Assembly (NCBI GenBank): GCA_964462555.1 | Contig: CAYWXY010000001.1 | Coordinates: 1,577-65,576, forward strand | DNA: 64,000 nucleotides | From: an uncultured Pseudomonadota bacterium | GTDB taxonomy: Bacteria; UBA10199; GCA-002796325; CAYWXY01 | Reading direction: 5' to 3' | Shown here: in pieces, positions 1,615 through 35,891 of the stretch | How positions within the stretch are numbered: position 1 is the first letter of the stretch | How the letters are laid out: every line of letters starts with the position of its first letter | The notes under the pieces: generated by a model | What the model saw: the letters and a program-made list of their open reading frames with translations, nothing else | What the model was told of the DNA's origin: nothing | The model's database searches: none | Made by a program: the position numbers and the translations under genes

Positions 1615-1825
1615 TTTCTTTCAAGGAATGATTCGTCTTTATCAATTGACGATTTCGCCTATTCTCTCAGCGCTAGGCGGCGGTTGTCGCTTCTATCCCA
1701 GTTGTTCTGAATATTCCAAAGAAGCCTTCACACATTATTCATGGCCACGTGCGGTTCTTATGACGATTAAGCGACTGTTGCGGTGTCATCCATTTCATCC
1801 CGGAGGAATCGATCCGGTACGCTAA
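1607..1825 (+). CDS. yidD: Membrane protein insertion efficiency factor YidD
   Basis: 72 aa; YQLTISPILSALGGGCRFYPSCSEYSKEAF and CHPFHPGGIDPV are hallmark YidD motifs; 8-bp overlap with rnpA. Confidence 0.9.
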   Translation: MRSFFQGMIRLYQLTISPILSALGGGCRFYPSCSEYSKEAFTHYSWPRAVLMTIKRLLRCHPFHPGGIDPVR

Positions 1826-1836
1826 AGGGGAATTTT

Positions 1837-3531
1837 ATGGGCGGTGAAAAACGCGGAATCTTTGCCATTGCACTCAGTTTACTGGTCTTTGTGGTCTGGT
1901 ATTCATTTATTCAACCTAAATTTTTCCCCGAGGACAAGAAAACCGAAACAGCAGCCGTTGAAGAGGTGGTAATAGCGGAAAAGCAAGTAGCCACGGCCGA
2001 GACGGCAGCGTTAGACCAAAAACCAACAGAGCCCACCGCAGCAGCGGGGGCGGTTTCCCAGAAGAACGTTGATGAAGTTTTCACAACGATCGAAACCCCA
2101 GAGATTAAGGTAACGTTTACAAATTATGGCGCCAGGCCGACCGAGTGGGTACTTAATCACTACACCACACGAAAAGGGAAAGACTCCAAGCCGATTAATC
2201 TAGTGACTCAGGACCCCACGCCGAAGCACCCATTAGAGCTAACATTTGTAAAAACGAATGTCGCCATTCCTAAAACGCTTCAGTATACCCTTGTTGAGGC
2301 GACGAACGAGCGTGTTCATTATCGTTGGACATCATCGGCACAGGTGATCGACAAGATCTATTCCGTGACCGATATTAAGTATGACCTCGGTCTGACAGTG
2401 ACAATTACCAATAAAGGAAAAGAGGCCTTAACTCAGCAAGTCTCTCTTGCCTGGACCGCAGGGAAGCCCGAAGAAAAAAAGGGTGGTTTCTTTAGCTTTT
2501 TAAAACGCCCATCCGATATTAAAATGCCGGTCTATGATTTCGATGGTGAGGTTGATAGAGAGACCTCCGTTGCCAAGCTTGGCAAGGAATCGGTCAAATG
2601 GGGAAGCCTTTTTTGGACCGGCATTGAAGACCGCTACTTTTTAGCCGCAATTGTTCCACAGGAGGTCGGCGGTTCATTAGGCCTTGAGATGGGAGTGTTT
2701 GGAGAGGCAGGGGCAAACGGTTTCTATTCCGGCCTCGTCCTTCCGGAGGGGATTATTCCCCCAGGTGGCGCGGAAAAATATAAGTTTTCAATCTTTGGTG
2801 GGCCAAAAGATATGCATGCGCTTCAGGCCGTTGGACGGGACCTTGACAAGGCGATCGATTATGGGTGGTTCACATTTATTGCCATCCCGATTCTCTACAC
2901 ACTCAAGTTTCTCTACAGTCTCGTTCATAATTATGGCATCGCCATTATCTTGCTGACAATCTTGATCAAAATTCTTCTCTATCCGATTTCAAAAAAATCG
3001 ATGAAATCAATGAAGGGAATGCAGCAATTGCAACCGCGTCTCAAAGAGCTCAAGGAAAAATATGCCAATGATAAAGAACGCCTCAATGTTGAAATGATGC
3101 AGCTCTTTAAAAACAACAAGGTTAATCCGATGAGCGGTTGTCTTCCGATGGTATTGCAGTTCCCGGTCTACATCGCGCTCTACCGTGTCCTCTGGAACTC
3201 CATTGAGCTTTATCAGGCACCCTTCTTCTGGTTTTATAGCGATCTTTCCCAGCCGGACCCTTACTACATTACGCCGGTTCTTCTGGGTCTTTTTATGGTT
3301 CTCCAACAGAAGTTGACACCAACCGCGACGGCTGATCCAGCCCAGCAAAAGATGATGATGCTCATGCCGGTCATGTTTGCCGTTTTTCTGGCCTTCTTGC
3401 CAGTGGGGCTGGTTATTTACATTCTCGTCAACACGGTCCTCACTGTTCTTCAGCAGTGGATGAACAACAATGATATCCGGTTCAGGGATCTGTTGCGGGG
3501 ACGATTTCCCAAAAAGGCCAATGCCCAATAG
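1837..3531 (+). CDS. yidC: Membrane protein insertase YidC (start likely ATG 1837, not 1783)
   Basis: N-terminal TM, large periplasmic domain, C-terminal 5-TM core with LLTILIKILLYPISKKSMKSMKGMQQLQP...NPMSGCLPMVLQFPVYIALYRVLWNSIEL; RBS AAAGGGG before 1837. Confidence 0.92.
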   Translation: MGGEKRGIFAIALSLLVFVVWYSFIQPKFFPEDKKTETAAVEEVVIAEKQVATAETAALDQKPTEPTAAAGAVSQKNVDEVFTTIETPEIKVTFTNYGARPTEWVLNHYTTRKGKDSKPINLVTQDPTPKHPLELTFVKTNVAIPKTLQYTLVEATNERVHYRWTSSAQVIDKIYSVTDIKYDLGLTVTITNKGKEALTQQVSLAWTAGKPEEKKGGFFSFLKRPSDIKMPVYDFDGEVDRETSVAKLGKESVKWGSLFWTGIEDRYFLAAIVPQEVGGSLGLEMGVFGEAGANGFYSGLVLPEGIIPPGGAEKYKFSIFGGPKDMHALQAVGRDLDKAIDYGWFTFIAIPILYTLKFLYSLVHNYGIAIILLTILIKILLYPISKKSMKSMKGMQQLQPRLKELKEKYANDKERLNVEMMQLFKNNKVNPMSGCLPMVLQFPVYIALYRVLWNSIELYQAPFFWFYSDLSQPDPYYITPVLLGLFMVLQQKLTPTATADPAQQKMMMLMPVMFAVFLAFLPVGLVIYILVNTVLTVLQQWMNNNDIRFRDLLRGRFPKKANAQ

Positions 3532-3581
3532 ATTAAGGGTTCCCTTTACATAGCACCCAAAATATATTATACGTCTTATTC

Positions 3582-6500
3582 ATGATATGGGGCTGTACAC
3601 CATACCGACCGCCGCCGGCCGACTATCCCGAGCTCCCGGATGTCTCACTCCATGACGTCATTCACGACACCCTCGTTATTAAAGACACGAAGGGTGGAGA
3701 CTCCCTCTTTGACTCCTTCTGGGATATTAAAGAAAAATACGATGCCGAGATTGATACGTTCAGAGAAGATGCGGATGGCTTTGTTGATGCCGAAACGAGC
3801 GATACGTCAGACACCTTTGATGCGTTTGATGGCGAAGAGATGTGTGAAGATCTCTGTTTTGATATTTCAGATAGTAACGATGGTGACGCAGAAGTTTGCG
3901 AGTTTGTTGGCGAGATTGACGATACCTGTGATGATATTGACGACGACTGTGACGGCGAAACCGATGAAGAATTTCCCATAGAATTGACCGAGTGTGGCGT
4001 TGGAGGTTGCCTTTCAACGGGCATCTTGGCCTGTGTCGGCGGCGACATTGTTGATACGTGCGTTGAAAAGCCGGCCGAGATTGACGACAGTTTTTGCGAT
4101 GGTATTGATGGCGACTGTGATGGATGGACCGACGAAGATTTTGAATCTGAAACCACGTCATGCGGTATCGGTGCCTGTTTTTCAGAGGGTTTAACACTAT
4201 GTATTGGAGGCGAGGTTCAGGATAGTTGTGAGCCCGCCCTCCCCGCACCAGACGATCCGGGCTGTGATGGCATTGATGATGACTGTGATGATCTGGTTGA
4301 CGAGGACTTTATTCCATATCCAACGTCCTGTGGGGCTGGGGCATGTGCCGCTGATGGTGAGGCGACGTGTGAGGGAGGTTTCATCATCGACAGTTGCGAG
4401 CCGCTAGCCACAGCACCAGACGATAGCGAATGTAACGGCATCGACGATGACTGTGACGGCGAAACAGACGAAGACTTTGTCTCAATGGTAACTGCTTGTG
4501 GTATCGGGGGTTGTGCCTCCGTTGGGCTAACGTTGTGTGTCGGGGGAAGTGTTCAAGACAGTTGCAAGCCAGGAAAGCCCGCGCCAGACGATGCGACATG
4601 CGACGCTATCGACGACGATTGCGACACAAAGATAGATGAAGACGTTCATCCGATTGAGACCGAGTGTGGCACGGGAGCTTGTTTGGGTTTAGGGCTGGCC
4701 ACATGTCTAGACGGAATAATGGTTGATAGCTGTGAAGAGGGAGTGCCGGCCCTGGACGATTCGGAATGCAACGGGATAGACGATGATTGTGACGGCGAAA
4801 CCGACGAAGAGTTTGTGTCTTCAGCCACCGAGTGTGGTCTTGGCGGCTGTGTTAGCACTGGAAGCACCAGTTGTATCAATGGAGAGGTTCAAAATAGTTG
4901 CACGCCAGAGATGCCAACCCCTGACGATGCCAAGTGTGACGGCGTCGATAGTGATTGTGATGAAGAGGTAGACGAAGACTTTATGCCATACGGTATTCAG
5001 TGTGGCGTTGGGGGCTGTATCGCGGACGGCCTGGCCATCTGTTTGAATGGTGAAATTTCGAATGAATGCACACCGGGAGCGGCGCTGGAAGATGATACGT
5101 CATGTGACGGAATCGACGGTGATTGCGATAGTGAGACCGATGAAGATTTTGTCTCAATGGCAACAATGTGTGGCACGGGTGGATGTTTGGCCGAGGGGAT
5201 CACACTCTGTATTGGTGGTGGCATTCAAGACAACTGTGTGCCCGGAGAGGCGGCGCCGAACGATGCGAGCTGTAATGGCGTCGACGATGATTGTGATGGC
5301 AAAACTGACGAAGATTATGTTCAGCAGATAACGAAATGCGGCGTTGGCGGCTGTTTTGAAGAGGGGGCGACCACCTGTTTGGGTGGCGTGATTTTGGACA
5401 GTTGTGTGGCGGGAACTCCTGCTCTGGATGATTCCGAATGCAATGGTATCGATGATGACTGCGATGGCGAAACCGACGAAGATTTTACCTCACAGGCAAC
5501 GGAATGTGGCACGGGGGCTTGTCTTAGCAGCGGAGAGACAAGCTGCATTAATGGTGTCGTACAAAATAGTTGTACCCCACTCTCCCCTGCCTTTGATGAT
5601 GCAACATGTGATGGTATCGATGATGACTGCGATAACGACCTTGACGAAGACTTTACTCCCTACAGCATTCAGTGTGGTATCGGAGGCTGTGTCGCGGACG
5701 GCCTGGCTATCTGTCTAAATGGTGAGATTTCGAATGAATGCACGCCGGGAGCGGCGTTGGAGGATGACACGTCATGTGACGGCATCGACGGTGATTGCGA
5801 CAGCGAGACCGATGAAGATTTTATCTCAATGGCAACAATTTGTGGCACGGGTGGATGTTTGGCCGAGGGCGTCACGCTCTGCATTGGTGGCGGCGTTCAA
5901 GACAACTGTGTGCCCGGAGAAGCTGCGCCGAACGATGCGAGCTGTAATGGCGTCGACGACGATTGTAGTGGCGAGACCGACGAAGATTTTATTTCAGAAA
6001 CAACAGAGTGTGGCACGGGTGCTTGCTGGGCCCAAGGCCTAACCATTTGTCTAAATGGTATGTTGATAGAAAATTGTGAGGAGCTTCTCCCGGCCATTTA
6101 TGATTCGGAGTGTAATGGTGTCGACGATGATTGCAATGGCGAGACCGACGAAGATTTTGTCTCACAGGCAACGGAATGTGGCACAGGAGCTTGTGTTGAT
6201 AGCGGAGAGACAAGCTGTGTTAACGGAGAAGTTCAAAATAACTGCGTTCCACTGCAACCCGCCCTAGATGATGCAACATGTAATGGTGTCGATGATGATT
6301 GCAATGGTGAGAGCGACGAAGACTTTATTCCCTATGGCATTCAGTGTGGCGTGGGGATCTGTCAGGCGAACGGTTTGGCTATTTGTCTAAATGGTGAAGT
6401 GGTTAATGAATGTACGCCTGGCCTCCCAGCACCAGACGACACATCGTGCGACGCGACAGATAACGATTGTGATGGCTTTAGTGATGAAGATTACATTCCC

Positions 6501-9500
6501 GAAACATCGTCATGTGGTGTGGGGGCATGTATCTCGGAAGGAACCATTTATTGTATTGGCGGAGCCTTTGTTGATAACTGTGAGCCCGGCCAACCCAGCG
6601 TCGAACTCTGCGACAATATCGACAATAATTGTAATAATGTTATCGATGATGATTGTATTGAAGGGGATTTCACCTGCGATGGCGTCGACGACGACGAAGA
6701 TGGCGAAACCGATGAAGAGTTTGAGCCCTACCCCACGTCATGTGGTATCGGGGAATGTTTTGCCGAGGGGCTTGCCACCTGCGTGAACGCCTCAATCATC
6801 GATAGTTGCGAGCCGGGAAGTCCGGCGCCGCTTGATACCATTTGCAACAATCTAGATGAAGATTGCGACAGTAATACCGATGAGGATGTTATTCCCGTTG
6901 AGACATATTGTGGAACGGGCGCTTGCGCCGCCGAGGGTCTTGCTATTTGTGTGGGCGGTGAAATGCAAGACAGCTGCACACCCGGGCAGGCGGCAGCGAC
7001 CGACACGTCATGTGACGGTGTGGATAATAATTGCAATGGCGAGACGGACGAAGGATTTATTTCGTATGCCACGTCATGTGGTCAAGGTGCCTGTTTGGCT
7101 GAAGGGCTCGCCACCTGTGTGAATGGCGATGTGGTGGATGATTGCACGCCTGGAAATCCCGCTCTTGATGATGCGACATGCAATAACGTTGATGACAACT
7201 GCAACGGATTTATAGATGAAGATTTTGTTCAATCAATAACGAATTGTGGTGTCGGTGCTTGTGAAAAGAGTGGGACAACATCGTGTATAGATGGCGACGT
7301 CATAGATAGTTGTGTTCCTGGGCAAGCGGCGCAAAATGACACCAGTTGCAACGCTGTCGACGATGACTGTGACGGTGAGGAAGACGAAGATTTTATTTCA
7401 CAGGCAACAGAATGTGGCACAGGCGCCTGCTCTTCCACGGGGCAGACAACGTGTGTGGCGGGCGAGATCGTTAATGATTGTGTTCCAGGTGACCCCGCAG
7501 CCAATGATGCGACATGTAATGGCGTCGACGATGACTGTAACAATGAAACGGACGAAGATTATCAAAATGCCGTCATCCAATGTGGCGTTGGCGCCTGTCT
7601 GGCCGACGGTCTGAAATTGTGTGTAAATGGCGAGCTGACAGACGAATGCACGCCCGGCCAGCCGGCACCCACTGATTCAACCTGTGACAATGTGGATAAT
7701 AATTGTAATGGCGAAACTGACGAGGGCTTCGTTTCTTATGCAACTTCTTGTGGTCAAGGCGCCTGTTTGGCTGAGGGGCTGGCCACGTGCGTCGGCGGCC
7801 AGGTCGTTGATAGTTGCACGCCTGGAAACCCCGCTCTTGACGATGCGACCTGTGATAACATCGATGATAATTGTAATGGGTTTGAAGACGAGGATTTTGC
7901 ATCAACCGTAACGAACTGTGGCGTTGGTGCCTGCGAGGCGAGCGGCACAACATCGTGTGTGGATGGAGATGTCATAGATAGTTGTGTTCCTGGGCAGGCG
8001 GCGCAAAACGACACTAGTTGCAACGGTGTCGACGATGACTGCAATGGTGAAACAGATGATGGTTTTGTGGCCCAGGTAACCGAGTGTGGCGTCGGGGCCT
8101 GTGCGGCAGAGGGCGCAACCGCCTGTGTTGACGGAGAGATAACAAATAACTGTACGCCTGGAGACCCGGCAGGAAGTGACGCCAATTGTGATGGTGTTGA
8201 TAATAATTGTAATAATGAAGTTGATGAAGATTATCAAAATGCCGTCATCCAATGTGGCGTTGGCGCCTGTCTGGCCGACGGTCTGAAATTGTGTGTAAAT
8301 GGCGAGCTGACAGACGAATGCACGCCCGGACAGCCGGCACCCACTGATTCAACCTGTGACAATGTGGATAATAATTGCAATGGCGAGGCTGACGAGGGGT
8401 TCGTTTCTTATGTAACCTCTTGTGGCCAGGGTGCTTGTCTGGCCGAGGGATTGGCAACGTGTTTGGCTGGAAACATTATCGATAGTTGTCTCCCGGGGGA
8501 GGCTGCCGCCAACGATTCGACGTGTGATAATGTTGACGACGATTGTGATGGTTTTAAAGATGAAGATTTTATCCAGGTGGTTACCAACTGTGGCGTGGGT
8601 CCCTGTGAAAAAGAGGGAATCACATCATGTGTCGACGGTGAGGTTATGGATAGTTGTCTTCCGGGAACGCCAGCACCGAGTGATGTTAATTGCGATAATA
8701 TTGACGACGATTGCAATGGCGAGGCCGACGATGGCTTTATCCCATATGATATAGAATGTGGCACGGGTGTCTGTTTTGCCGAAGGGCTTGCCCTTTGCGT
8801 TCAGGGCAGCATTGTTAACGATTGTGCCGAGGGTGAACCGACCGGAAACGACAGTGACTGCGATAATACAGATAATAATTGCAATGGATTTGTCGATGAA
8901 AATTTTGTTCCGTTTGGGACAGGGTGTGGTGTAGGTGCCTGTGCGGCCGAGGGTATGGCGACATGCGTGGGAGGAGAAATTCTTAACAGCTGTACACCAG
9001 GAGAAGCGGCCCCAAACGACACAACATGTGATGGTGTGGATGATGACTGCGACAGCGCGGTCGACGAAGATTATCAAAATGTCATTATTCAGTGTGGCGT
9101 CGGCGCCTGTGTTGAAGATGGATTAAAGCTATGCGTCGGTGGAGAATTTGTCGAGAATTGCGTGCCCGGAGACCCAGCTGAAAATGATACAACTTGTGAT
9201 GGTGTCGACGACGATTGTAATGGATTTAATGATGAAGACTTTAATCCGTATGGCACCAATTGTGGTGTTGGTGCTTGTTTCGCCGCAGGAACAATGACGT
9301 GTGTGGGCGGGCAACTTCAGAACGACTGTGAGCCGGGTGCTCCAGCGCTCACCGACGACGAATGTGATGGTATTGATAATAATTGTAACGGTACGACGGA
9401 TGAAGAATACGCACCAGAGATAACGGCCTGCGGCAGCGGAGCGTGTGCCGCTGAAGGAACAACGGAATGCATGGAAGGCGATATCATTGATAATTGCACA

Positions 9501-11387
9501 CCCGGGCTCGGAGCTGACGATGATCTAACCTGCGATGACGTCGACGACGATTGTAACGGTGAAACCGACGATGGCTACATTCCACAAAATACAGAGTGTG
9601 GTGTTGGCGCCTGTATGGCCGAAGGAATTACATCTTGCGTCGGTGGAACAGAGGTCGACGATTGCGCACCTGGAACGCCGGCCGAAAGCGATACCAATTG
9701 TGACGGCGTCGATGACGATTGTAATGGCGTGGCAGATGATGGATTTGTTTCGTATCCAACAAATTGTGGTCAAGGTGCCTGTTTTGCCGAAGGACTCGCG
9801 ACCTGTGTTGGCGGGGCTATCATCGATAGTTGTGAAGAGGGAACTCCGGCCCTTAACGATGTGACGTGCGATAATGTCGACGACGATTGCGATAATGAAA
9901 TCGACGAAGATTATATTGGCAACGCGATTCAATGTGGCGTCGGCGCCTGTATTGCAGACGGCATCACAGCCTGCGTTGGTGGGACAGAGCTCGACGACTG
10001 TACGCCGGGCCAACCCGCTGCAAGCGACACGACCTGTGATAATGTCGATGATGATTGTAACGGTGTGGCGGATGATGGTTTTGTTTCGTATTCGACAAAT
10101 TGTGGTCAAGGTGCCTGTTTTGCCGAAGGGCTTGCAACTTGTATAAATGGGATATTGAGCGACAGCTGCGAAGAAGGGATTCCGGCCCCGAACGATGTGA
10201 CATGCGATAATGACGACGATGATTGCGATAATGAAATCGACGAAGATTATATTGGTAATGCGATTCAGTGTGGTGTCGGCGCTTGTCTAGCAGATGGAAT
10301 CACAACATGCGTCGGTGGGGCAGAGCTCGACGACTGTACGCCGGGTCAACCAGCGCCATCGGATGAAAGTTGTGACAACGTCGATGACGATTGTAATAAC
10401 CAGACCGACGATGGTTTTGTTCCCTACTCCACCGAGTGTGGTGTAGGCGCATGCGTAGCCGAGGGAGAAGCGACCTGTGTGGGCGGAGAAATTCAGAATA
10501 GCTGCATACCGGGAATGCCCGCAATTAATGACGAGACATGCAACAACATCGACGACGACTGTGACGGCGCGACCGATGAAGACTTCGCATCCTATGTTAC
10601 GAGTTGTGGCGTCGGCGCCTGTCAAGCTGAGGGCCTGGCCACATGTGTGGGTGGAGAAGTGATCGACAGTTGCACGCCAGGAGAGGCGGCGGCCAACGAT
10701 GTAACATGCGATAATGTTGACGATGACTGTAATGGCGAAACCGATGAAGACTACGTTCCAACTGGGATGAGTTGCGGTGTTGGATCATGTGTTGAAAGTG
10801 GTCTCATACAGTGTGTGGGCGGCGAATTAATTGAAGAATGTACGCCGGGAACGCCAACCGATGAAATTTGCGATGGACACGATAACGATTGTGATGGAAA
10901 TACCGACGAGATCTGCATTGACAATATTCAAACGGGCTCCCTTCTCCTTGTTGGCTACACGACGCCGGCGAAGACGGAGATCATCAATAAAGAGGTTTTT
11001 GCAACAATCATTACCGGAGAGGCCCCCCTTCCCGATTCCTTTACGGTGGCGATTGAACATTGTATCGAAGAAGTCTGCACGACGACCGACCCGGTCGCCC
11101 TGGCTAACGGTATTGAACTCTGTGATTTTTCAGTGGGGCTTGGAAATGAGGCGTGCGAAGAAAATCAACCGGCCCCCATCAAGGAGTCAAATATTCTAGA
11201 TCTGACACTTGCGCAACTGATTCCCGGAATGAATCTTTGGTCCCTCTCTCAAGATGAAACATTCCGCGGCAACGTCACAACGTTGTCATACGACCTCGGC
11301 GGTTATAATATTGGTCTCGAGATTCCGATCCCCAACGCAGATGCGGCCTCATGCTACTATCTCTTTAACACCTACGCCTGCGATTAA
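3582..11387 (+). CDS. Giant (2601 aa) acidic cysteine-rich tandem-repeat protein. About 50 copies of a 45-aa six-Cys module ending in an LDLa/TSP3-like Ca-binding loop CDGxDDDCDGxTDEDF. No N-terminal signal peptide. Unique 190-aa C-terminal domain. Likely Ca-binding surface/secreted adhesin-like protein
   Basis: Single uninterrupted ORF. Repeat pattern C-x4-C-x7-C-x8-C-x11-C-x6-C with motifs CG(T/V)G(A/G)C, CxPGxPAxxD and CDG(I/V)DDDCDGETDEDF. Alternating module subtypes (ATECGTGAC.. / IQCGVGGC..). Near-identical DNA blocks recur at 672-bp offsets. First in-frame start is ATG 3582, with a stop at 3534. Confidence 0.85.
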   Translation: MIWGCTPYRPPPADYPELPDVSLHDVIHDTLVIKDTKGGDSLFDSFWDIKEKYDAEIDTFREDADGFVDAETSDTSDTFDAFDGEEMCEDLCFDISDSNDGDAEVCEFVGEIDDTCDDIDDDCDGETDEEFPIELTECGVGGCLSTGILACVGGDIVDTCVEKPAEIDDSFCDGIDGDCDGWTDEDFESETTSCGIGACFSEGLTLCIGGEVQDSCEPALPAPDDPGCDGIDDDCDDLVDEDFIPYPTSCGAGACAADGEATCEGGFIIDSCEPLATAPDDSECNGIDDDCDGETDEDFVSMVTACGIGGCASVGLTLCVGGSVQDSCKPGKPAPDDATCDAIDDDCDTKIDEDVHPIETECGTGACLGLGLATCLDGIMVDSCEEGVPALDDSECNGIDDDCDGETDEEFVSSATECGLGGCVSTGSTSCINGEVQNSCTPEMPTPDDAKCDGVDSDCDEEVDEDFMPYGIQCGVGGCIADGLAICLNGEISNECTPGAALEDDTSCDGIDGDCDSETDEDFVSMATMCGTGGCLAEGITLCIGGGIQDNCVPGEAAPNDASCNGVDDDCDGKTDEDYVQQITKCGVGGCFEEGATTCLGGVILDSCVAGTPALDDSECNGIDDDCDGETDEDFTSQATECGTGACLSSGETSCINGVVQNSCTPLSPAFDDATCDGIDDDCDNDLDEDFTPYSIQCGIGGCVADGLAICLNGEISNECTPGAALEDDTSCDGIDGDCDSETDEDFISMATICGTGGCLAEGVTLCIGGGVQDNCVPGEAAPNDASCNGVDDDCSGETDEDFISETTECGTGACWAQGLTICLNGMLIENCEELLPAIYDSECNGVDDDCNGETDEDFVSQATECGTGACVDSGETSCVNGEVQNNCVPLQPALDDATCNGVDDDCNGESDEDFIPYGIQCGVGICQANGLAICLNGEVVNECTPGLPAPDDTSCDATDNDCDGFSDEDYIPETSSCGVGACISEGTIYCIGGAFVDNCEPGQPSVELCDNIDNNCNNVIDDDCIEGDFTCDGVDDDEDGETDEEFEPYPTSCGIGECFAEGLATCVNASIIDSCEPGSPAPLDTICNNLDEDCDSNTDEDVIPVETYCGTGACAAEGLAICVGGEMQDSCTPGQAAATDTSCDGVDNNCNGETDEGFISYATSCGQGACLAEGLATCVNGDVVDDCTPGNPALDDATCNNVDDNCNGFIDEDFVQSITNCGVGACEKSGTTSCIDGDVIDSCVPGQAAQNDTSCNAVDDDCDGEEDEDFISQATECGTGACSSTGQTTCVAGEIVNDCVPGDPAANDATCNGVDDDCNNETDEDYQNAVIQCGVGACLADGLKLCVNGELTDECTPGQPAPTDSTCDNVDNNCNGETDEGFVSYATSCGQGACLAEGLATCVGGQVVDSCTPGNPALDDATCDNIDDNCNGFEDEDFASTVTNCGVGACEASGTTSCVDGDVIDSCVPGQAAQNDTSCNGVDDDCNGETDDGFVAQVTECGVGACAAEGATACVDGEITNNCTPGDPAGSDANCDGVDNNCNNEVDEDYQNAVIQCGVGACLADGLKLCVNGELTDECTPGQPAPTDSTCDNVDNNCNGEADEGFVSYVTSCGQGACLAEGLATCLAGNIIDSCLPGEAAANDSTCDNVDDDCDGFKDEDFIQVVTNCGVGPCEKEGITSCVDGEVMDSCLPGTPAPSDVNCDNIDDDCNGEADDGFIPYDIECGTGVCFAEGLALCVQGSIVNDCAEGEPTGNDSDCDNTDNNCNGFVDENFVPFGTGCGVGACAAEGMATCVGGEILNSCTPGEAAPNDTTCDGVDDDCDSAVDEDYQNVIIQCGVGACVEDGLKLCVGGEFVENCVPGDPAENDTTCDGVDDDCNGFNDEDFNPYGTNCGVGACFAAGTMTCVGGQLQNDCEPGAPALTDDECDGIDNNCNGTTDEEYAPEITACGSGACAAEGTTECMEGDIIDNCTPGLGADDDLTCDDVDDDCNGETDDGYIPQNTECGVGACMAEGITSCVGGTEVDDCAPGTPAESDTNCDGVDDDCNGVADDGFVSYPTNCGQGACFAEGLATCVGGAIIDSCEEGTPALNDVTCDNVDDDCDNEIDEDYIGNAIQCGVGACIADGITACVGGTELDDCTPGQPAASDTTCDNVDDDCNGVADDGFVSYSTNCGQGACFAEGLATCINGILSDSCEEGIPAPNDVTCDNDDDDCDNEIDEDYIGNAIQCGVGACLADGITTCVGGAELDDCTPGQPAPSDESCDNVDDDCNNQTDDGFVPYSTECGVGACVAEGEATCVGGEIQNSCIPGMPAINDETCNNIDDDCDGATDEDFASYVTSCGVGACQAEGLATCVGGEVIDSCTPGEAAANDVTCDNVDDDCNGETDEDYVPTGMSCGVGSCVESGLIQCVGGELIEECTPGTPTDEICDGHDNDCDGNTDEICIDNIQTGSLLLVGYTTPAKTEIINKEVFATIITGEAPLPDSFTVAIEHCIEEVCTTTDPVALANGIELCDFSVGLGNEACEENQPAPIKESNILDLTLAQLIPGMNLWSLSQDETFRGNVTTLSYDLGGYNIGLEIPIPNADAASCYYLFNTYACD

Positions 11388-12871
11388 TCGTTACTGACGA
11401 GACCCTGAATGAAATAGGGATTAAACGTTTGATCGATCGATGAAAACTCTTGCCAGATCAGCGCAAAGCCATTCTCCTGCGATACAAACGAATCTCCAGC
11501 GACGGTTCCCTGAATAAGTAGGGACTCGTTGGAAGAGAGCGCCCTTCCCGACTGATCGATTTTTGTCAGGTAGGTATTATGAAAGGTGATGCCGGTGTAG
11601 CCCGAAGCGACAGCGTAGGCACTATAGGTTGTAAAATGGGTATCGTTCCAGGTAATCACGGCGCCATCACGATTGGTCGCAATTTCTTTTCTTTCGACAA
11701 GAGCGGCACCAGCGGGACTATATCTTGCAAAGTATAAAGAGCCGATATTAGAATCATCACGTACAACCCAGGTAACGCCCATAGAGGCGCCATCCCAAAC
11801 GAGACTCGGAGTGGTGGAATAGACAGAAGTGTCGGAAATGAGGAGGGCAGAGGTGTCGGAGGAGATATCGGGCTTAAGGTAGATATTCATGAGGTCGCCG
11901 TCTCCAACTTCATTCCAGGTTGCGGCGTAGCTGGAAGACGTCGTGATCAAGATAAGGCGATGTGATCGTGATTCACTGTTGGATATATTCTTTGCGGCGG
12001 TCTTTTCGCTACCGTCGGCGTTGAGAGTCATAAAGTAGATATCGGACCACCAATTGGAACCGCTGTAGCCACACCACGCAAGACCATATTCATCATCTCC
12101 TGAAACAATGGAAATGCAGTCAGTGTTGGTGTGGACAGAGGGTATTTGACGCGCGGGAACGGTCACCGTTCCACTGGCGTCCATTCGCGTAAAATAGATA
12201 ATATCATTGTCGTCCTCTTCCAGACCGTAAACAATTGCGAAATCGGTGCCGTTCCAAGCAATGTCATTAATTGAAATAGTGGGTGTCCCCGATACGAATG
12301 GCATCAATTCGGAATGACTGTTTGTCGACGGATCGAGCGTTACAAAGTTATTATGTGCTACGAGGCCATAGATCGTTCCGCTATAAGCCAAGGCAAAAGG
12401 ATTCGTTTCAACATTTGCGGCAAGCGAGGTCATGTCGATTTTGGATCGAACAACAAATGAAGATGTGTCTGGGTCCGTTGGGTCCAGATATGTGACGCGA
12501 GCTGTTGTCTCAACTTCGGAACCGTCCACCGATAGCGAAGTGGTCAAAATTTTATCATCGTCATCGACAGTTCCGTTGAATACGATTTCTGTGCCATCAG
12601 AAAGGGTTGGGGATATCGAAAAGGCGCTGTCCGTGATTAAAACAGAAACGGTGGCACTTCCTGACACGGTCCCATCGATACTCGATTTGGAAAATGTGCC
12701 ACTTCCGTTGGCATCGGTTTCAAGGCTGTAGTTCGTTAGGGCCGCAGTTGTTAATGTTAGTTCCATATTGCCGAGCGGTTCAGGGTTTCCAGTCTCTGTT
12801 CCCTTTCCTGGCGTGCAGGCGTAGAGAGACACCAATACAAAAAAAAGAAGAACTTTTAAACATTGCCTCAT
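11384..12871 (-). CDS. Putative lipoprotein (495 aa) with Thr/Ser-rich N-terminal region and repeated W-x-G/aromatic blocks (beta-propeller-like); function unknown
   Basis: Signal peptide MRQCLKVLLFFVLVSLYAC with Cys lipobox-like site; recurring motifs IAWNGTDF, LAWCGYSG, ATWNEVGDGD, VTWVVRDD, ITWNDTHF, LIWQEF; 4-bp ATGA overlap with upstream gene. Confidence 0.6.
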   Translation of the reverse strand: MRQCLKVLLFFVLVSLYACTPGKGTETGNPEPLGNMELTLTTAALTNYSLETDANGSGTFSKSSIDGTVSGSATVSVLITDSAFSISPTLSDGTEIVFNGTVDDDDKILTTSLSVDGSEVETTARVTYLDPTDPDTSSFVVRSKIDMTSLAANVETNPFALAYSGTIYGLVAHNNFVTLDPSTNSHSELMPFVSGTPTISINDIAWNGTDFAIVYGLEEDDNDIIYFTRMDASGTVTVPARQIPSVHTNTDCISIVSGDDEYGLAWCGYSGSNWWSDIYFMTLNADGSEKTAAKNISNSESRSHRLILITTSSSYAATWNEVGDGDLMNIYLKPDISSDTSALLISDTSVYSTTPSLVWDGASMGVTWVVRDDSNIGSLYFARYSPAGAALVERKEIATNRDGAVITWNDTHFTTYSAYAVASGYTGITFHNTYLTKIDQSGRALSSNESLLIQGTVAGDSFVSQENGFALIWQEFSSIDQTFNPYFIQGLVSND

Positions 12872-13734
12872 GAATTGTCCTCACTCTTTGTTAATTTGAT
12901 AAAGCCGAGATTGATATTAACCACCTCGGTCTTGTTGTTGTTCCCCTCCTCCAGCTGCCGATGCAGTTTTCGACGAAACTCCTGAAGGGCGTCCTTCAGT
13001 TCGGCCATCTTCTCTGTTGAGATGGCCATTGTGATTGCAGAAAACTCGCGGTCGTCGACCGGATCCATTTTGACGGCTTCTTTGGATAGTTCCATCAGCT
13101 GTTCGTGAAATTCGGTGATCGAAAGGCTGCGGACCACATTTGGGGTCGCGAGCATCTCATCCGTTTTTTTAAGTCGACCAGCCTCATCGCGAGAGATCAG
13201 GCCGAGCCCTTCAAGTTCCTTCATGGCATGTTTGGCCTTTGGGACAGAAATAGGCGGCTTTAGCTTGTTTGCGATCCAATGATAATCCTCACGAAAATTA
13301 TCCAAACGCACAACCTCCATCAGTGCCAAATAGTACCAATTCGAATAAATCTTATAGTACTTTGACTGAAGCGTCGCCGGACTCTTCTTTGGTGTAAAGT
13401 CGACAAGTTGTTGGTAGTAGAGATTTTTTTCATCGTATGTGCCGGCTTGGCAAAAATTGACGAGCGCATGAAAAAAACGCGATTCTTTTTTGGAAAGACG
13501 AAAGCCTTTGCAGATCTTTTCGGCACTATCTGACGTCAGATTTCGCTTGCCGTCCATGATGAGTTTAAGATGGGCAGGCGATTTCATTCCGGCACGCCGA
13601 TTGAAGTTTCGATATGAGAATGTGGGGAGTGTCTCCTTGAGGAAGGAGATTCGATCCTTGAGGAATTCGCGATAGTCAACGAACTGATAAATCTCCTTGA
13701 TCTTGATTTCGTCATTGTTTATTGAATCGTCCAT
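12868..13734 (-). CDS. TIGR02147-like family protein (uncharacterized; N-terminal HTH-like region), translationally coupled to the downstream lipoprotein
   Basis: N-terminal YQFVDYREFLKDRISFLKETLPTFSYRNFNRRAGMKSPAHLKLIMDGKRNLTSDSAEKICKGFRLSKKESRFFHALVNF resembles the DYRxFLxD...FSYRxFAxKAG..SP..L..VI.GKRNL signature recalled for the TIGR02147 family (from memory, not searched). Confidence 0.55.
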   Translation of the reverse strand: MDDSINNDEIKIKEIYQFVDYREFLKDRISFLKETLPTFSYRNFNRRAGMKSPAHLKLIMDGKRNLTSDSAEKICKGFRLSKKESRFFHALVNFCQAGTYDEKNLYYQQLVDFTPKKSPATLQSKYYKIYSNWYYLALMEVVRLDNFREDYHWIANKLKPPISVPKAKHAMKELEGLGLISRDEAGRLKKTDEMLATPNVVRSLSITEFHEQLMELSKEAVKMDPVDDREFSAITMAISTEKMAELKDALQEFRRKLHRQLEEGNNNKTEVVNINLGFIKLTKSEDNS

Positions 13735-13867
13735 CTAAAAACTCCGAAATTTTAGGAAGCACAGGTAAACAACCAACAACACTTATATTGTATAACATAT
13801 TGATATAATTGTCATAATAAATATCGCCAAAAGAGAAAGACATAATATAGTCTATAAATACAATGCC

Positions 13868-14785
13868 TTAGTAAACATGCAGAATGCAGCTCGAGTCCTC
13901 TGCGTTGATACCAATAATGTACACCTCTTCGTCTATTGTCTGGATCGTGCTGTTGAGAGAAAGGTCGTCAAAATGGCACGATTCATAAGATCCAGCGCTT
14001 GCTGGAAGAACCTCTAGCGTAGATACGAAATCGGGGCAGATCAAGGATGTAACCTCAACAATATTGGACAGGCACTCCAAAATTTCTTTTGCGTGAAGTG
14101 CTTCTAATTCATCATCTGATAAATCTTCTGTGTCTTCTATTAATATATGTGGCTTATTAGGTGGTTGGGAAGAATTGTTAATATCGATATTAGGCAGTGA
14201 ATTTAAAAAACCTGGAATTGGATAACTTGGGAGGGGGACTTCTGCATTATTTTCACCCTCAAGAACCACGTCAGGATTGAGACTCTTTATGATGCAATCA
14301 ACTGAATCAAAATGATATGCTACCTCTGAATCTTCAAGCAGGAGGATGTCCCCTGTATTGCTATTGCAGTAATAGGCCTCACCCTTTTCATCTAAGACAC
14401 CAGCGATATTTTCTATAACGTCCTGCAAATGATCAAAGTCGTTCGCAGTCCAGCCTGTTGATGCCTGGCCACAAGCAAACAAAAAATTATAAAGAACTAA
14501 TGTTTCACATTGTGAATCATCAGCGTCTTCATCGCCATCATTCGCACTTTCTCCGCTTTCCCCATCACCATCATCGTCATCACGATCATCCCCCTTGTCG
14601 CCGTCATCATCAAGTTCGGTATCACCTGGGATCTCGACGGCATCATTCTCCCCATCGTCATCGAAGAAGGAGGCAAAATCGTTGGGCCGAACAGTTCCAT
14701 TATCTCCACATCCGGATAGAATAAGTAGCGCCGGCAGGAGAAGAATTGCGGCAAGAACGACAATTTGCTGAAGAAATTTTCTCAT
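13868..14785 (-). CDS. Acidic lipoprotein with poly-Asp/Glu low-complexity region (function unknown)
   Basis: MRKFLQQIVVLAAILLLPALLILSGC lipobox; DDDGENDAVEIPGDTELDDDGDKGDDRDDDDGDGESGESANDGDEDADD tract. Confidence 0.6.
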   Translation of the reverse strand: MRKFLQQIVVLAAILLLPALLILSGCGDNGTVRPNDFASFFDDDGENDAVEIPGDTELDDDGDKGDDRDDDDGDGESGESANDGDEDADDSQCETLVLYNFLFACGQASTGWTANDFDHLQDVIENIAGVLDEKGEAYYCNSNTGDILLLEDSEVAYHFDSVDCIIKSLNPDVVLEGENNAEVPLPSYPIPGFLNSLPNIDINNSSQPPNKPHILIEDTEDLSDDELEALHAKEILECLSNIVEVTSLICPDFVSTLEVLPASAGSYESCHFDDLSLNSTIQTIDEEVYIIGINAEDSSCILHVY

Positions 14786-15003
14786 ACGAACCTCCATATG
14801 GCTTGATTACTTTGTTTACAGAATTTACAAAAGAGCATTTAAAATACAGTGTATTTTATATAAGCAATTTATATGCCAAGATGCGGCCAATAATTAGCTA
14901 ATAATAACGAGCAGGTAGGGTTTGTGGGCTTTTAAGGATGGGGGGTGGTGACCTCGCAGCTGTATACTCAAAACCCCAAAAAACGAGTAAAATGTGAGCG
15001 GGC

Positions 15004-16731
15004 TTACCTAAACTCGGCCTTATAAATATGATTAGTGGAACCATCCGACTGTTGCCAGACAATGACCGTCTCACCATGATCATTGATAGCAATCTGGGGA
15101 TAGTAGGCATCATGATTGTCGGGGCTGATATTGTCGAGAAGATCTTCCGGAACAAATAAAACACCCTCTCGAAATTCGCCCTTAAAGACCTGAGAGTTGG
15201 TATCATCAGACTGTGTCCATACAACAACCGTGTCGCCGTCGACATTCATTGCCACCTGCATACCCTGAGAGGTTCCGTCCTCACGACCGTAATAGCTGAC
15301 CGGTTGCCAGTTGCCATCGCTATTTGCATATAGACCAACACGATAGGCGGCTCCGTCATGCTGCTGACAGACAATGACAGCCCCTCCATCATCATTCATA
15401 GCAATCTGTGCATACCGCGCTGTCAACCCCTCCGTGCTGAGGGCGTCTGAGGTGTCTGTAGGATGTACCCATACCCCCTCACGATACTCGCTCTTCAAAA
15501 TACGAGGAGTAAACGCGTCATCCGATTGATGCCATGCGATAATCGCATCGCCGTTTTCATTCATTGCAACTGCAGGATTGTTGGCGCTAAGACCCTCTGG
15601 GCTGATGTAGTCTGAGCTGTCCGAAGGATGTGTCCAAGCTCCCTCGCGGTATTCGCTCTTGAATATGCGAGATTTACCCTCGGCAAGTTGTGACCAGACA
15701 ATGATGGTTGCCCCGTCATTATCGATCGCAACTTGAGGGTGTGTGGCATTCAAGCTCCCGGGGTCAATATAGTCTGAGCTGCCCGAGGGATGCGTCCATA
15801 CCCCGCCACGATACTCGCTCATATAAATACGGAGATAGTCCCCCCTGTACTGGAACCAGGCAATAACGGTTTCGCCATTGTTGTTCATGGCTACCTGGGG
15901 AAGATAAACGTCATTGTCATCGGGACTTATATTATCTGAGAGGTTCGTCGGATGTGTCCAGGTTCCATCACGATATTCGCTCTTAAAGGTTTGGAGGCTT
16001 TCTCCATCGCTTTGTTTCCAAACGATAATAGCCTCCCCTTGATCATTCATAGCAACCTGTGGTCTCTGGGCATTTTCACCGTCTGGACTGATGTTGTCTG
16101 TGAGGTTCGTCGGATGCGTCCAGGCTCCATCACGATATTCGCTCTTGTAGATCTGGGAGGCATTGCCGTCCGATCGTGACCAGACAATAATGACGTTGCC
16201 GCTATTATCAATGGCAACTTGAGGGGCGAGTTCGTCTCCCCCTCCACCCTCTGGGTCGATGTGATCATTTTCTAGGCTCGTTGGGTGTGTCCAACGGTTT
16301 GAGCAAACGATATCGATGCTACGAACATCATCGCCATTGATTGTTCCGCTTCCGTTTGCGATAGTGCAGTTTTGTAAAAGGGGCTCTGTATCTAAGGTAA
16401 TAGAATAATTGCTGCCATCTTCAAAGGTTTCTTCGAACTGAAAATCACCATTGGCAGACAGGGCAAGATTCTCGCTGTTATTGATCTTAAGAACCAGCTC
16501 TTCGCTTGCAAGCCCTGTTAGCGAACCGCCAACATAATAGTAAGTGGCATCCGTCGTCGTCTCAGACGCTCCCCCCTCCTCCTCGGCTGGTGTCTCAGTC
16601 TCGGTCGGAGCATTTGTTTCGACACTTTCCTTTTCGGCGGGCTGGCTTGAATCTGTTGGAAGCCCACCGCAGGCCGAGAGGGTTGATAGGAAAAAAATAA
16701 TAAATAGAGCATCGAAGCGAAAAAGTTTCAT
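15004..16731 (-). CDS. Lipoprotein with about 9-10 tandem 47-aa repeats (WTHPTNLSDNISPDG...PQVAMN..GEAIIVWxQSDG..xIYKSEYRDG); probable beta-propeller; function unknown
   Basis: MKLFRFDALFIIFFLSTLSACGG lipobox; highly regular internal repeats visible in translation. Confidence 0.65.
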   Translation of the reverse strand: MKLFRFDALFIIFFLSTLSACGGLPTDSSQPAEKESVETNAPTETETPAEEEGGASETTTDATYYYVGGSLTGLASEELVLKINNSENLALSANGDFQFEETFEDGSNYSITLDTEPLLQNCTIANGSGTINGDDVRSIDIVCSNRWTHPTSLENDHIDPEGGGGDELAPQVAIDNSGNVIIVWSRSDGNASQIYKSEYRDGAWTHPTNLTDNISPDGENAQRPQVAMNDQGEAIIVWKQSDGESLQTFKSEYRDGTWTHPTNLSDNISPDDNDVYLPQVAMNNNGETVIAWFQYRGDYLRIYMSEYRGGVWTHPSGSSDYIDPGSLNATHPQVAIDNDGATIIVWSQLAEGKSRIFKSEYREGAWTHPSDSSDYISPEGLSANNPAVAMNENGDAIIAWHQSDDAFTPRILKSEYREGVWVHPTDTSDALSTEGLTARYAQIAMNDDGGAVIVCQQHDGAAYRVGLYANSDGNWQPVSYYGREDGTSQGMQVAMNVDGDTVVVWTQSDDTNSQVFKGEFREGVLFVPEDLLDNISPDNHDAYYPQIAINDHGETVIVWQQSDGSTNHIYKAEFR

Positions 16732-16833
16732 AATACCTCCTTGTGAACGATGATGTATTATCGCAAAAAAGGGAGGTGTATGTTGTGTGCTATTTAGTGG
16801 TTTGCGAAGAATCCGTATACTCGGAGTAAACAG

Positions 16834-17862
16834 TTAGAATAAATCTTTTTGGGTGGAAATGGCGCTTTTGGGAGCGCCGCCTTCATTTTCGGCCTCGGTT
16901 CGAGCAAGATAGACCATAGCGGCACCGATCGCGGAATCGAACCAGTCGTCACTCGCATTATTGTAAGCAACGGTAAGCGTAATCATGTCGCCACTTCCAA
17001 CGGCGACGCCGGCCGGATCTTGAAAGGGTGGAAGTGATGTAATCCGATGATCATCATCGATCAATGCTGTCCCCTTCCAAAAGGGGTCACCCTCATCACC
17101 CTTAGTAAGAGAAACCGAAACGCCATAATTTTGTAGAAGCCCATGGGCCTGAATCACAGAACCTGTCTCCGGTGAATAGGCAACCTCTACCTTTTCAACA
17201 AATTGTCCCGGTGCGATATTAATCGGCTCGTGATAACAAGGGTCGAGATCGATCATCATTGGCAAAACATCGGTCATCATCTTTGTATTGTCCATCGGTT
17301 CGCCAACGAGAATGACCTTGATATAGACACCAAAAAAATCCTGCTTCAACGGGTTCTGAAGAACAACGCGGGCCTCGAGCGGATCGCTGGGAACGACGGC
17401 ATAACCATGTCCCTCGGGAAGTTCAATCTTTTCCATATTGGAACTGGTGGCCGCAAAGGGATTTCCGGTTTGGCTGGTTGTACAAAAACTATTTTCCTCA
17501 CCGTGATTCACGAGAAGGATTTGATGAACAAGCTCGTTTGGGAGAGCAGCACCTTCAGCATCTTCAATGATCGGTTCAATCGATGTTACCCAGAGAGGTT
17601 CCTCCAGGTTGAAGCGCATCGTTGCCGGTTTCAAAATCATGGCGTTGGCAGACGTCATTGACGAAATATCATAAGGCCCCATATGGTACGTATAGACAAC
17701 CTTTCCGGTCTCATCGAGATAGTCGGAGATCGAGAGTTCTGCCTTTGACGGTTCGGCCTTCAGCTGCATGCTGGGGCCGCCTGGAACGTCGTTACAGGCG
17801 GAAAGGAGTGCCACCAAAGATATTGTTGCAAATGTGATAAGCTTTCGCATAAGTTTGGCCAT
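16834..17862 (-). CDS. Hypothetical lipoprotein (true start likely MAKLMRKLITFATISLVALLSAC at 17862)
   Basis: LSAC lipobox after hydrophobic stretch; the listed ORF's N-terminal extension lacks features. Confidence 0.55.
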   Translation of the reverse strand: MAKLMRKLITFATISLVALLSACNDVPGGPSMQLKAEPSKAELSISDYLDETGKVVYTYHMGPYDISSMTSANAMILKPATMRFNLEEPLWVTSIEPIIEDAEGAALPNELVHQILLVNHGEENSFCTTSQTGNPFAATSSNMEKIELPEGHGYAVVPSDPLEARVVLQNPLKQDFFGVYIKVILVGEPMDNTKMMTDVLPMMIDLDPCYHEPINIAPGQFVEKVEVAYSPETGSVIQAHGLLQNYGVSVSLTKGDEGDPFWKGTALIDDDHRITSLPPFQDPAGVAVGSGDMITLTVAYNNASDDWFDSAIGAAMVYLARTEAENEGGAPKSAISTQKDLF

Positions 17863-17901
17863 GTTAACACGAGGCTTTTTTAGCGGTGAATACGCGCCGC
17901 G

Positions 17902-29601: not shown

Positions 29602-29925
29602 ATGTCCGAAAATATTGTCGCAAAGATTCGAAAAGCCGAAGAAGATGCCCAGTCTTTTGTGGACCTGGCAAAGCGTGAATCAAGCGCCGGGATTGCCCAG
29701 GCCAAAAAAGATCTCGAGGCGGCTCATCAGAAGTCTGAAGCAGAATCCCGAGAACATCTCAAAAAGTTTCGAAAATCTAAGGCAGAAAAATACAGAGCCG
29801 AAACAAAACGATTAAGAGATGAAGGTAAGAAGGCAGAGACTGCCTATGCCCAGAATCTGGAAGCGCGCTTTGGTGAGATTAAGGCAAAAATCGAAGAGAT
29901 GATCAGGAAAGAGCTATGTCTATAG
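29602..29925 (+). CDS. V/A-type ATPase peripheral-stalk subunit G/H-like (small coiled-coil protein)
   Basis: 107 aa, Lys/Glu/Ala-rich heptad-like sequence; first gene of the V-type operon. Confidence 0.55.
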   Translation: MSENIVAKIRKAEEDAQSFVDLAKRESSAGIAQAKKDLEAAHQKSEAESREHLKKFRKSKAEKYRAETKRLRDEGKKAETAYAQNLEARFGEIKAKIEEMIRKELCL

Positions 29926-31871: not shown

Positions 31872-31883
31872 CGTTTTTATTAA

Positions 31884-32362
<479 letters not shown>

Positions 32363-32363
<1 letters not shown>

Positions 32364-32923
32364 TGTCTCTCGACAATATATTAAAGAGAATCAAAGAACA
32401 GTCCGAGGGTGAGGCATCAGCGATTCGTCAAGGGGCTGAAGACGAAATTGCCAAGATCAATGAGGTTGGGAAAAAAGAGCATGACGCGTTGGATGCGGCC
32501 GTTCGAAAAGAAGAGGCGTCCATCGACACCGAATTGTCGAATGCTATCTTGCTCCCAGCGCGAATGGAGATACGCGGAGCCAAACTCAAGACGAAACAGG
32601 AGATGATCGACCGGGCCTTTAGCGATGCGATTCAGTTTTCAGATGACGACTATCAGCGCGTCCTCGATCATCTTTTTTCTCAGATCCCAAAGGTGACAGA
32701 CGGGACGATTCATCCAGCCGCGGGGAAAGAGGCGATCACAAAGGCCTATATAAAGAGTAAAAAAATCAAGGCCACGGTGGGAGATGCGGTTGATGCACTC
32801 AAGGGTGGTTTTATTCTCAAGAGTGGTCGCGTGGAATATGACTGTTCATTTGATACACTACTTAAAAAACTAAAGGAGCAACTCGAAACGGAGATTGCCC
32901 CGCTTTTTAACGACAATGAGTGA
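32363..32923 (+). CDS. ntpE: V-type ATPase subunit E
   Basis: 186 aa; N-terminal coiled coil with repeated EAxxI/K patterns; operon position. Confidence 0.8.
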
Positions 32924-33993: not shown

Positions 33994-34000
33994 TGAAAAA

Positions 34001-34112: not shown

Positions 34113-34123
34113 AGATTTTTATA

Positions 34124-35881: not shown

Positions 35882-35891
35882 CGAGGAGCAT

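Follow-up and report, generated by a model that had tools for sequence, protein, structure and literature searches.

Immediately downstream of yidC in the genome of an uncultured Pseudomonadota bacterium (GTDB lineage Bacteria; UBA10199; GCA-002796325; CAYWXY01), a single gene encodes a giant, acidic and cysteine-rich repeat protein, and the locus raises the question of what kind of protein this is, how the gene arose and where its product might act. The gene lies in a stretch of 64,000 nucleotides (GenBank assembly GCA_964462555.1, contig CAYWXY010000001.1, positions 1,577 to 65,576 of the forward strand), which we call the window and whose first letter is position 1. An original prediction made from the letters alone had described it as a giant gene inserted between yidC and mnmE, where jag normally sits. 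Our results indicate that the protein is almost certainly a member of a large, catalogued, functionally uncharacterised repeat family, PF11617. Judged by comparison with relatives, its gene is an internal tandem expansion of a conserved small yidC-adjacent gene and not a foreign insertion.

As predicted, one uninterrupted open reading frame (ORF) occupies positions 3582-11387 of the plus strand. It encodes 2601 amino acids (aa) plus a stop codon, corresponding to a product of ~265 kDa, and its ATG is located 50 nt past the yidC stop codon, so that the gene indeed follows yidC directly. The composition is extreme, with 15.0% Asp, 12.4% Gly, 10.0% Cys (261 residues) and 8.2% Glu, only 23 Lys plus Arg, 5 His and 5 Trp residues in the entire protein, and a net charge of about -578. 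The acidic and cysteine-rich character was thus correctly recognized beforehand, but not the exact proportions, as Cys amounts to 10.0% and not 13%, and Asp plus Glu to 23.1% and not 20%. The GC content at third codon positions (GC3) is 0.47 and lies inside the range of the other window genes; the raised GC content of the region stems from codon positions 1 and 2 and is explained by the amino acid composition of the giant protein. Exact-sequence look-ups for the giant protein and for YidC returned no record.

The protein is built from a strictly periodic module. Cysteine spacings of 4, 7, 8, 11, 6, and 14 residues recur and define a repeat unit of 56 aa, consisting of 42 aa from the first to the last cysteine and a 14-aa linker, instead of the 45 aa originally proposed. 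The proposed six-cysteine pattern C-x4-C-x7-C-x8-C-x11-C-x6-C was found to be exact in 39 modules. These canonical modules, two variant modules and one N-terminal half module make up the array, fewer than the ~50 copies initially counted. The gene is organized as follows.

3582..11387, plus strand: whole coding sequence of the MopE-motif (PF11617) repeat protein
3582..3896, plus strand: N-terminal region, aa 1-105, with MIWGC-TPY and then an acidic linker rich in Asp, Glu, and Pro
3897..3971, plus strand: N-terminal half module, aa 106-130, an acidic CxxxDxDC-DGETDEE loop without the beta-sheet half
3972..6491, plus strand: array A, 15 canonical 56-aa six-Cys modules, aa 131-970
6492..6719, plus strand: interruption, aa 971-1046, with one variant module of x9 spacing, one additional loop capped by Cys and one loop without Cys (DGVDDDEDGETDEE)
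6720..10751, plus strand: array B, 24 canonical modules, aa 1047-2390
10752..10916, plus strand: terminal variant module, aa 2391-2445, with a capped loop (C-x9-C-x6-C-x7-C)
10917..11384, plus strand: conserved C-terminal domain of ~155 aa, ending in AASCYYLFNTYACD and common to the small orthologs described below

Twelve columns are invariant across the 39 canonical modules (C8, G9, G11, C13, G17, C21, C30, D39, C42, D46, C49, and D54). Each module ends with C-[DN]-x-x-D-[DN]-[DN]-C-[DN]-G-x-x-D-[ED], and the loop positions D39, [DN]43, D46, [DN]47, [DN]48, [DN]50, G51, D54, and [ED]55 form a pattern of the DxDxDG type. All-oxygen loops of this type, composed of D, N, and E residues, are typical of Ca2+ sites. 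Altogether 42 CxxxDxDC motifs are present, and 29 of the 42 loops match [DN]x[DN]x[DN]Gxx[DE], with a mean of 9.8 acidic residues per loop. The acidic loop suggested to close each module was therefore confirmed.

When the protein was scanned against Pfam, PF11617 (Cu-binding_MopE, 'putative metal-binding motif') was the only family matched, with 163.6 bits (E=1.1e-48; gathering threshold, 27 bits) in 21 stretches, and the resemblance to the myxobacterial 'putative metal-binding' (MopE-type) motif noted earlier was borne out. The PF11617 model spans the acidic loop only, approximately module positions 37-55. LDL receptor class A (LDL-A, PF00057), thrombospondin type-3 (TSP_3, PF02412) and calcium-binding EGF domains were not reported by the Pfam scan at E<=1, in which the HMMER filters may conceal very weak TSP_3 matches, and the NCBIfam scan gave no family at E<=1. 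In homolog searches, 89 proteins aligned with the giant protein through its modules, and the last 265 aa, used as query, likewise attracted hits by the modules alone; the N-terminal 112 aa and the C-terminal 146 aa were unmatched. The C-terminal domain had no match in Pfam or NCBIfam either. Several of the 89 homologs bear the name 'MopE-related protein' and belong to Myxococcota and other uncultured phyla, and in many of the 89 the six-Cys spacing is identical and a signal peptide or lipobox is present as well.

We scored 1.84 billion cluster representatives (50% identity) with a profile of the entire 56-aa module. At E<=1e-3 the profile matched 6877 proteins, of which 1013 remained at E<=1e-30, and dozens of the matched proteins comprise 2000-5800 aa with 20-68 matched modules. 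The notion that a protein of this size and composition is unusual in bacteria could not be upheld. Going by these matches, module and giant architecture are common, and the protein represents no new class. Among the top 150 family proteins, 121 started with Met (P0090, described below, was left out), and a crude hydropathy test revealed a hydrophobic N-terminal segment in 88 of them, which was lipobox-like in 37 of the 88. A hydrophobic stretch followed by RRR, resembling MYXO-CTERM anchors, was present at the C-terminus of 14 of the 121. No functional study of 'MopE-related' proteins was found in the literature. The original prediction had named a match of the modules to a well-characterised family of known function as evidence that would overturn it; the family found is catalogued, yet functionally uncharacterised, and only half of that objection applies. 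With the PF11617 or NCBI 'MopE-related' proteins, the giant protein shares the acidic CxxxDxDC-DGxxDE loop, the full six-Cys module with identical spacing and the multi-module architecture, which is common there too. It differs from them in being an almost pure module array without any other domain family, in having neither the signal peptide or lipobox nor the MYXO-CTERM-like tail of many members, and in having N- and C-terminal regions that are confined to a handful of syntenic orthologs.

The origin of the gene became apparent from its surroundings. The window represents an origin-proximal region with rnpA, yidC, mnmE, mnmG, rsmG, parAB, and operons for V-type and F-type ATPases. In the nearest species representatives (YidC 40-47% identical; 68% over a partial match in L005), mnmE directly follows yidC and jag is absent. 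Homologs of MnmG with 63-74% identity led to the contigs of closer relatives. Four of these relatives, related at the family level (L085 to L088), share the order yidC, small plus-strand gene, conserved minus-strand lipoprotein gene, mnmE, and a fifth (L089) is without the small gene. The arrangement in the window is the following.

1783..3531, plus strand: yidC, the upstream neighbour
11384..16731, minus strand: four lineage-specific genes, absent from L085-L088, three of which encode lipoproteins
16834..17862, minus strand: gene for a conserved lipoprotein of ~343 aa, 53-57% identical to the L085 and L086 copies
17902..19311, plus strand: mnmE, 6.5 kb downstream of the giant gene

Contrary to the original prediction, mnmE is thus not adjacent to the giant gene, from which five minus-strand genes (11384-18075) separate it. 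A displaced jag is likewise not supported, as none of the eight relatives examined carries jag between yidC and mnmE, and the idea of an inserted gene conflicts with the presence of the small gene in exactly this slot in L085-L088.

The small gene encodes 310-633 aa. In the L085 and L088 products a Cys followed by (T/N)PY is found near the N-terminus, as in the window protein. The acidic linker is present, CxxxDxDC motifs occur 0 (L088), 1 (L085), 1 (L086), or 7 (L087) times, and a C-terminal domain of ~150 aa, ending in AACxYxYNxFAC, aligns to the end of the giant protein. In BLASTP comparisons, the C-terminal part of the giant protein matched small orthologs with E=8e-13 and 1e-10 (25-26% identity over ~185 aa), and aa 1-135 matched the L085 protein with E=9e-10, in an alignment that begins no earlier than aa 14 and whose end falls in the shared motif. 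The terminal capped loop (10752..10916) is the sole unit of the giant protein also found in the L085 and L086 proteins. Position, Cys-(T/N)PY, acidic linker, motifs and the shared C-terminal domain together identify the small gene as an ortholog of the giant gene. Compared to its relatives, this species has an additional ~6.9 kb of modules plus the four minus-strand genes at 11384-16731. The GC3 of the giant gene, similar to that of its neighbours, and the synteny of its orthologs make a recent horizontal acquisition less likely. A profile of the C-terminal domain matched nothing in a 5.8-billion-protein index or in metagenome_contigs; it also missed the known orthologs, so that this negative is a weak one.

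The modules share on average 58% identity in DNA and 52% in protein, and synonymous sites between them have reached saturation (mean pS 0.80). Nucleotide identity averages 0.60 between modules at offset 2, 0.64 at offset 4, and ~0.57 at odd offsets. A weak signal for the alternating subtypes that had been proposed thus exists at even offsets, but it comes mainly from a few younger block duplications of four or two modules, which show 77-97% nucleotide identity. In the duplicated blocks dN/dS lies between 0.07 and 0.25, with 0.07 in a young pair (dS 0.11), and the giant gene is under purifying selection.

The top match of the module-profile search, a protein of 2657 aa (P0090), proved to be a second allele. 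Its contig (L081, ENA ERZ23499064) was assembled independently and from a different sample. Over 13.5 kb it shares 99.7% identity and the gene order with the window, and its upstream sequence and MIWGC start are the same. The L081 allele has one extra, diverged module after aa 1994 (window 9487-9646 versus L081 6868-7195), resulting in 43 instead of 42 motifs and 42 instead of 41 full modules. Elsewhere in the gene, the alleles differ in four codons, all nonsynonymous, three of which cluster at codons 828-840. Module copy number still appears to vary between strains, going by the two assemblies compared, in which the single difference could also have an assembly cause. Assembly of a repetitive region might in principle also have generated the giant ORF itself, as the two assemblies differ by exactly one 168-bp module and modules 21 and 25 show 97% identity along their 168 nt. 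The array is neither a collapsed nor an inflated repeat, however, because its modules are on average so dissimilar in DNA; frame and Cys register are perfect across 7.8 kb, an independent assembly contains the same gene, and the extra module of L081 is a diverged copy and not a perfect duplicate. An artefact of this kind has a very small probability, and we regard chance and assembly artefact as excluded as causes of the giant gene.

The module fold was predicted with AlphaFold2 using alignments built from the giant protein's own modules, which gave a mean pLDDT of 87.5 for four modules and 85.7 for 1.5 modules. The predicted module consists of a three-stranded antiparallel sheet (positions 4-8, 15-22, and 25-28) and a subsequent 28-residue loop without regular secondary structure. 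For four modules the pTM was only 0.39, which would fit beads on a string whose neighbours lack a fixed orientation. In a set of 2371 modules from 239 family proteins, C8 and C30 were missing together 59 times and C30 alone 8 times; C8-C30 is the most likely disulfide by this covariation. PDB sequence searches with four modules and with the module profile retrieved no chain at E<=10, MopE* included.

Regarding the ligand of the loops, published work on teneurins is informative. In the alignment of Tucker et al., the PF11617 consensus is matched to the core of the teneurin cysteine-rich region (PMC3278476), and Meijer et al. determined the crystal structure of the teneurin C-rich domain, in which the corresponding D/N positions coordinate three Ca2+ in a TSP3-like and LA-like manner (PMC9058538). 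Like the module, this domain (human teneurin-4 residues 834-871) contains a Cys-framed D-x-x-D-N-D-x-D-G-x-x-D core (PMC9058538), and it has six Cys in ~40 residues. By analogy, we infer that two or three Ca2+ are bound per module, which would correspond to ~80-125 per molecule. TSP3 repeats and LDL-A modules also carry disulfide-stapled, all-oxygen DxDxDGxxD Ca2+ loops in tandem and outside the cell, a resemblance stated for the teneurin relative (PMC9058538), but they differ from the 56-aa module in Cys number, spacing and length. The six-Cys spacing of LDL-A with its C-D-G-x-x-D-C-x-D-G-S-D-E is not reproduced, as the two loop cysteines of the giant protein have six residues between them and its other four Cys belong to the beta-sheet unit. 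The similarity to LDL-A and TSP3 seen by the original prediction therefore holds for the loop pattern, where the teneurin comparison backs it (PMC3278476, PMC9058538), but not at the level of profile matches.

The Pfam name 'Cu-binding_MopE' suggests instead that the protein is secreted to scavenge or store copper or another transition metal, and indeed this is the only family matched and the densities of carboxylates and Cys are very high. The motif, however, is all that the giant protein has in common with MopE/CorA of methanotrophs, from which the Pfam name derives. Only a limited portion of MopE is covered by PF11617, which 'lacks specificity' for MopE/CorA (PMC6189053), and there is no similarity to the solved MopE* chain. 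The copper site of MopE is formed by two His and a Trp-derived kynurenine (PMC3423442), ligands without counterpart here, where none of the 5 His and 5 Trp falls in a conserved module column. The all-oxygen D/N/E loop, in turn, corresponds to the type found at Ca2+ sites (PMC9058538). Copper is consequently an unlikely ligand, and we attach only a low probability to this reading.

From these results we propose the following mechanism, which we consider about evenly balanced between being right and wrong as a whole. In each module, the first half would fold into a three-stranded antiparallel beta-sheet containing one disulfide, most probably C8-C30. The other half would be the 28-residue loop with about ten acidic residues (D-x-x-C-[DN]-x-x-D-[DN]-[DN]-C-[DN]-G-x-x-D-[ED]), caging two or three Ca2+ if the comparison to the C-rich domain of teneurins and to TSP3 repeats is valid. 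The six invariant cysteines would pair into three disulfides, which require an oxidising extracytoplasmic location. Forty-two modules in a row may then constitute a long, Ca2+-stiffened, strongly anionic beads-on-a-string stalk of variable length, grown by tandem duplication inside the small ancestral gene next to yidC. The stalk would keep the N-terminus at a distance from the conserved C-terminal domain, which is shared with the small orthologs and is probably the end that does the work, and would present this domain at the cell surface or beyond it. The extracytoplasmic location is suggested by the hydrophobic N-termini, in part lipobox-like, of most family proteins surveyed.

Whether the protein can reach such a location depends on its N-terminus and hence on the start codon. 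The ATG at 3582 is not preceded by a Shine-Dalgarno sequence, whereas many other window genes have AGGAGG-type sites. The following element was found upstream of it.

3545..3573, plus strand: promoter-like element TTTACA-N17-TATACG, ending 8 nt before the ATG

This element is unique in the 64-kb window, with 0 occurrences expected from shuffles, and is also present 7 nt before the ortholog ATG in L085 (4803-4831) and L087 (5494-5522); in L088 a one-base variant, TTTACT-N16-TATACG, precedes the ortholog. A sigma-70 scan did not call the element, owing to the G at position 6 of the -10 hexamer. We infer a conserved promoter from which the transcript would start at or just before the ATG, yielding a leaderless mRNA. 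The conserved element abutting the ATG supports 3582 as the true start, and an in-frame TAA at 3534, two codons past the yidC stop, makes an earlier in-frame start impossible. A hidden signal peptide formed by the in-frame upstream stretch ILYVLF before MIWGC was considered and rejected, since no canonical start is available; this stretch coincides with the AT-rich promoter-like element, which holds ATA or ATT in every frame.

With this start, the N-terminus MIWGC contains no hydrophobic segment. The best 10-aa Kyte-Doolittle window scored 0.79, compared to 2.5-3.3 in neighbouring lipoproteins, and a hydrophobic core followed by a lipobox Cys is not present, as the Cys is located at position 5, directly after MIWG. 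The absence of a signal peptide, already noted at the outset, was thus confirmed. The orthologs are heterogeneous in this respect. The L087 protein begins with MIQYLAAAALLFVAGC, a canonical lipoprotein signal, the N-terminus of the L086 protein is hydrophobic, that of L085 weakly hydrophobic, and that of L088 without a hydrophobic segment. Cys5 of the giant protein aligns with the lipobox Cys of L087 (MIQYLAAAALLFVAGC) and is homologous to it, and it looks from this alignment as if the hydrophobic core of an ancestral lipoprotein signal had been lost.

Several observations weigh against the proposed extracytoplasmic stalk, and the missing signal peptide is the main point that it leaves unexplained. 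Known C-terminal sorting domains (MYXO-CTERM, PEP-CTERM, T9SS CTD, and LPXTG) had no NCBIfam or Pfam match (NCBIfam E<=1), and the C-terminus lacks a hydrophobic-plus-basic tail. Secretion-system genes were not found among the window genes scanned, which comprised all but a few ORFs. If the protein were cytoplasmic, it could form neither disulfides nor loaded Ca2+ sites. In addition, neither a sequence match nor a fold match to a teneurin, TSP3, LDL-A, or MopE structure emerged, and the assignment of Ca2+ derives entirely from motif-level similarity.

Part of these observations would be explained if the protein were not exported at all, having lost its lipoprotein signal. It would then be a recently disabled cytoplasmic relic or serve another role, for example, as a thiol- and carboxylate-rich sponge for metal cations. 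In favour of this view, the coreless MIWGC start is identical in two assemblies, the promoter-like element immediately before the ATG argues for this start, and the core present in L087 looks deleted here, the L088 protein being without one too. The four codon differences between the alleles are also all nonsynonymous, but four are too few for measuring selection. The 7.8-kb ORF is intact in both alleles, and the low dN/dS of the duplicated blocks, the young pair included, does not fit a disabled gene; moreover, the invariant six-Cys pattern and the family-wide signal peptides point to a disulfide-bonded extracytoplasmic fold. A protein confined to the cytoplasm is therefore rather unlikely in our view. 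Alternatively, the protein might be exported unfolded via a C-terminal signal in the manner of type-1 secretion system (T1SS) substrates and fold outside upon Ca2+ binding. Such a route would be in agreement with the missing N-terminal signal, the very large size, the extreme acidity, the Ca2+-type repeats and the distinct conserved C-terminal domain. However, Pfam reported no RTX (HemolysinCabind) repeat. Neither the GGxGxDxUx nonapeptide repeats nor the linked ABC and membrane-fusion protein genes of RTX or type-1-secreted adhesins have a counterpart, with no gene for an ABC transporter, a membrane-fusion protein or TolC among the window genes scanned, and the L087 and L086 orthologs have hydrophobic N-termini. 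A content of 261 Cys would also be unusual in a T1SS substrate. We consider type-1 secretion improbable and retain the extracytoplasmic stalk as the preferred reading.

The genes surrounding the giant gene deserve a brief description. The conserved lipoprotein of ~343 aa, which in the relatives is encoded by the immediate convergent neighbour directly downstream of the small ortholog, contains an HQxxLxNHxEEN stretch; it had no Pfam or PDB match, and its profile matched nothing in metagenome_contigs. The first three lineage-specific genes (11384-14797, minus strand) encode a 495-aa lipoprotein, a 288-aa DUF4423 protein and a 309-aa lipoprotein. The stop codon of the 495-aa lipoprotein gene overlaps that of the giant gene by 4 nt, and its product shows a weak DUF7467 match, while the 309-aa lipoprotein contains a very acidic Asp/Glu/Gly stretch. 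The fourth gene (15004-16731, minus strand), absent from L085-L088, encodes a 575-aa lipoprotein with about nine tandem repeats of ~47 aa (WTHPxxLxDxISPxG...QVAM...G.A.IVW). Its Pfam matches are weak ones to BNR_4 and neuraminidase-like families only, and it is probably a beta-propeller. Directly after mnmE, a 380-aa Gly/Ser/Thr-rich lipoprotein is encoded at 19409-20551 on the plus strand, and an unannotated gene of 386-443 aa holds the same position in L085, L086, and L088. The V-type ATPase and F-type ATP synthase operons (29916-37973 and 42112-47448) lie within 15 kb of each other, with parAB (39865-41617) near. In L088, a gas-vesicle protein gene (PF00741; 11911-12459) lies within a few kb of the yidC-mnmE-mnmG cluster, a hint that the lineage may be planktonic.

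For genome annotation, the useful result is a negative one, namely that the locus harbours no novel protein class and no replacement of jag. The module family is very large, yet no structure has been solved and no function tested for it, and 'Cu-binding' in its Pfam name probably misleads. At the speculative end, a signal-less 265-kDa polyanion with 261 Cys and a leaderless transcript might arrive at the surface by a route free of an N-terminal signal, perhaps via its C-terminal domain, or might act as an intracellular cation store. The 56-residue module would then be a Ca2+-binding fold without a solved representative that can be multiplied into surface fibres of adjustable length. We regard this possibility as doubtful. 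The notable by-products of the analysis are the conserved promoter-like element abutting the start codon and the series of motifs in the orthologs. The locus offers a clean natural series in which one syntenic gene carries 0, 1, 1, 7, 42, or 43 motifs while the C-terminal domain stays constant. This series would be convenient for asking what the modules contribute (Ca2+ binding, rigidity, or spacing), how fast the array grows and whether the C-terminal domain is the functional end.

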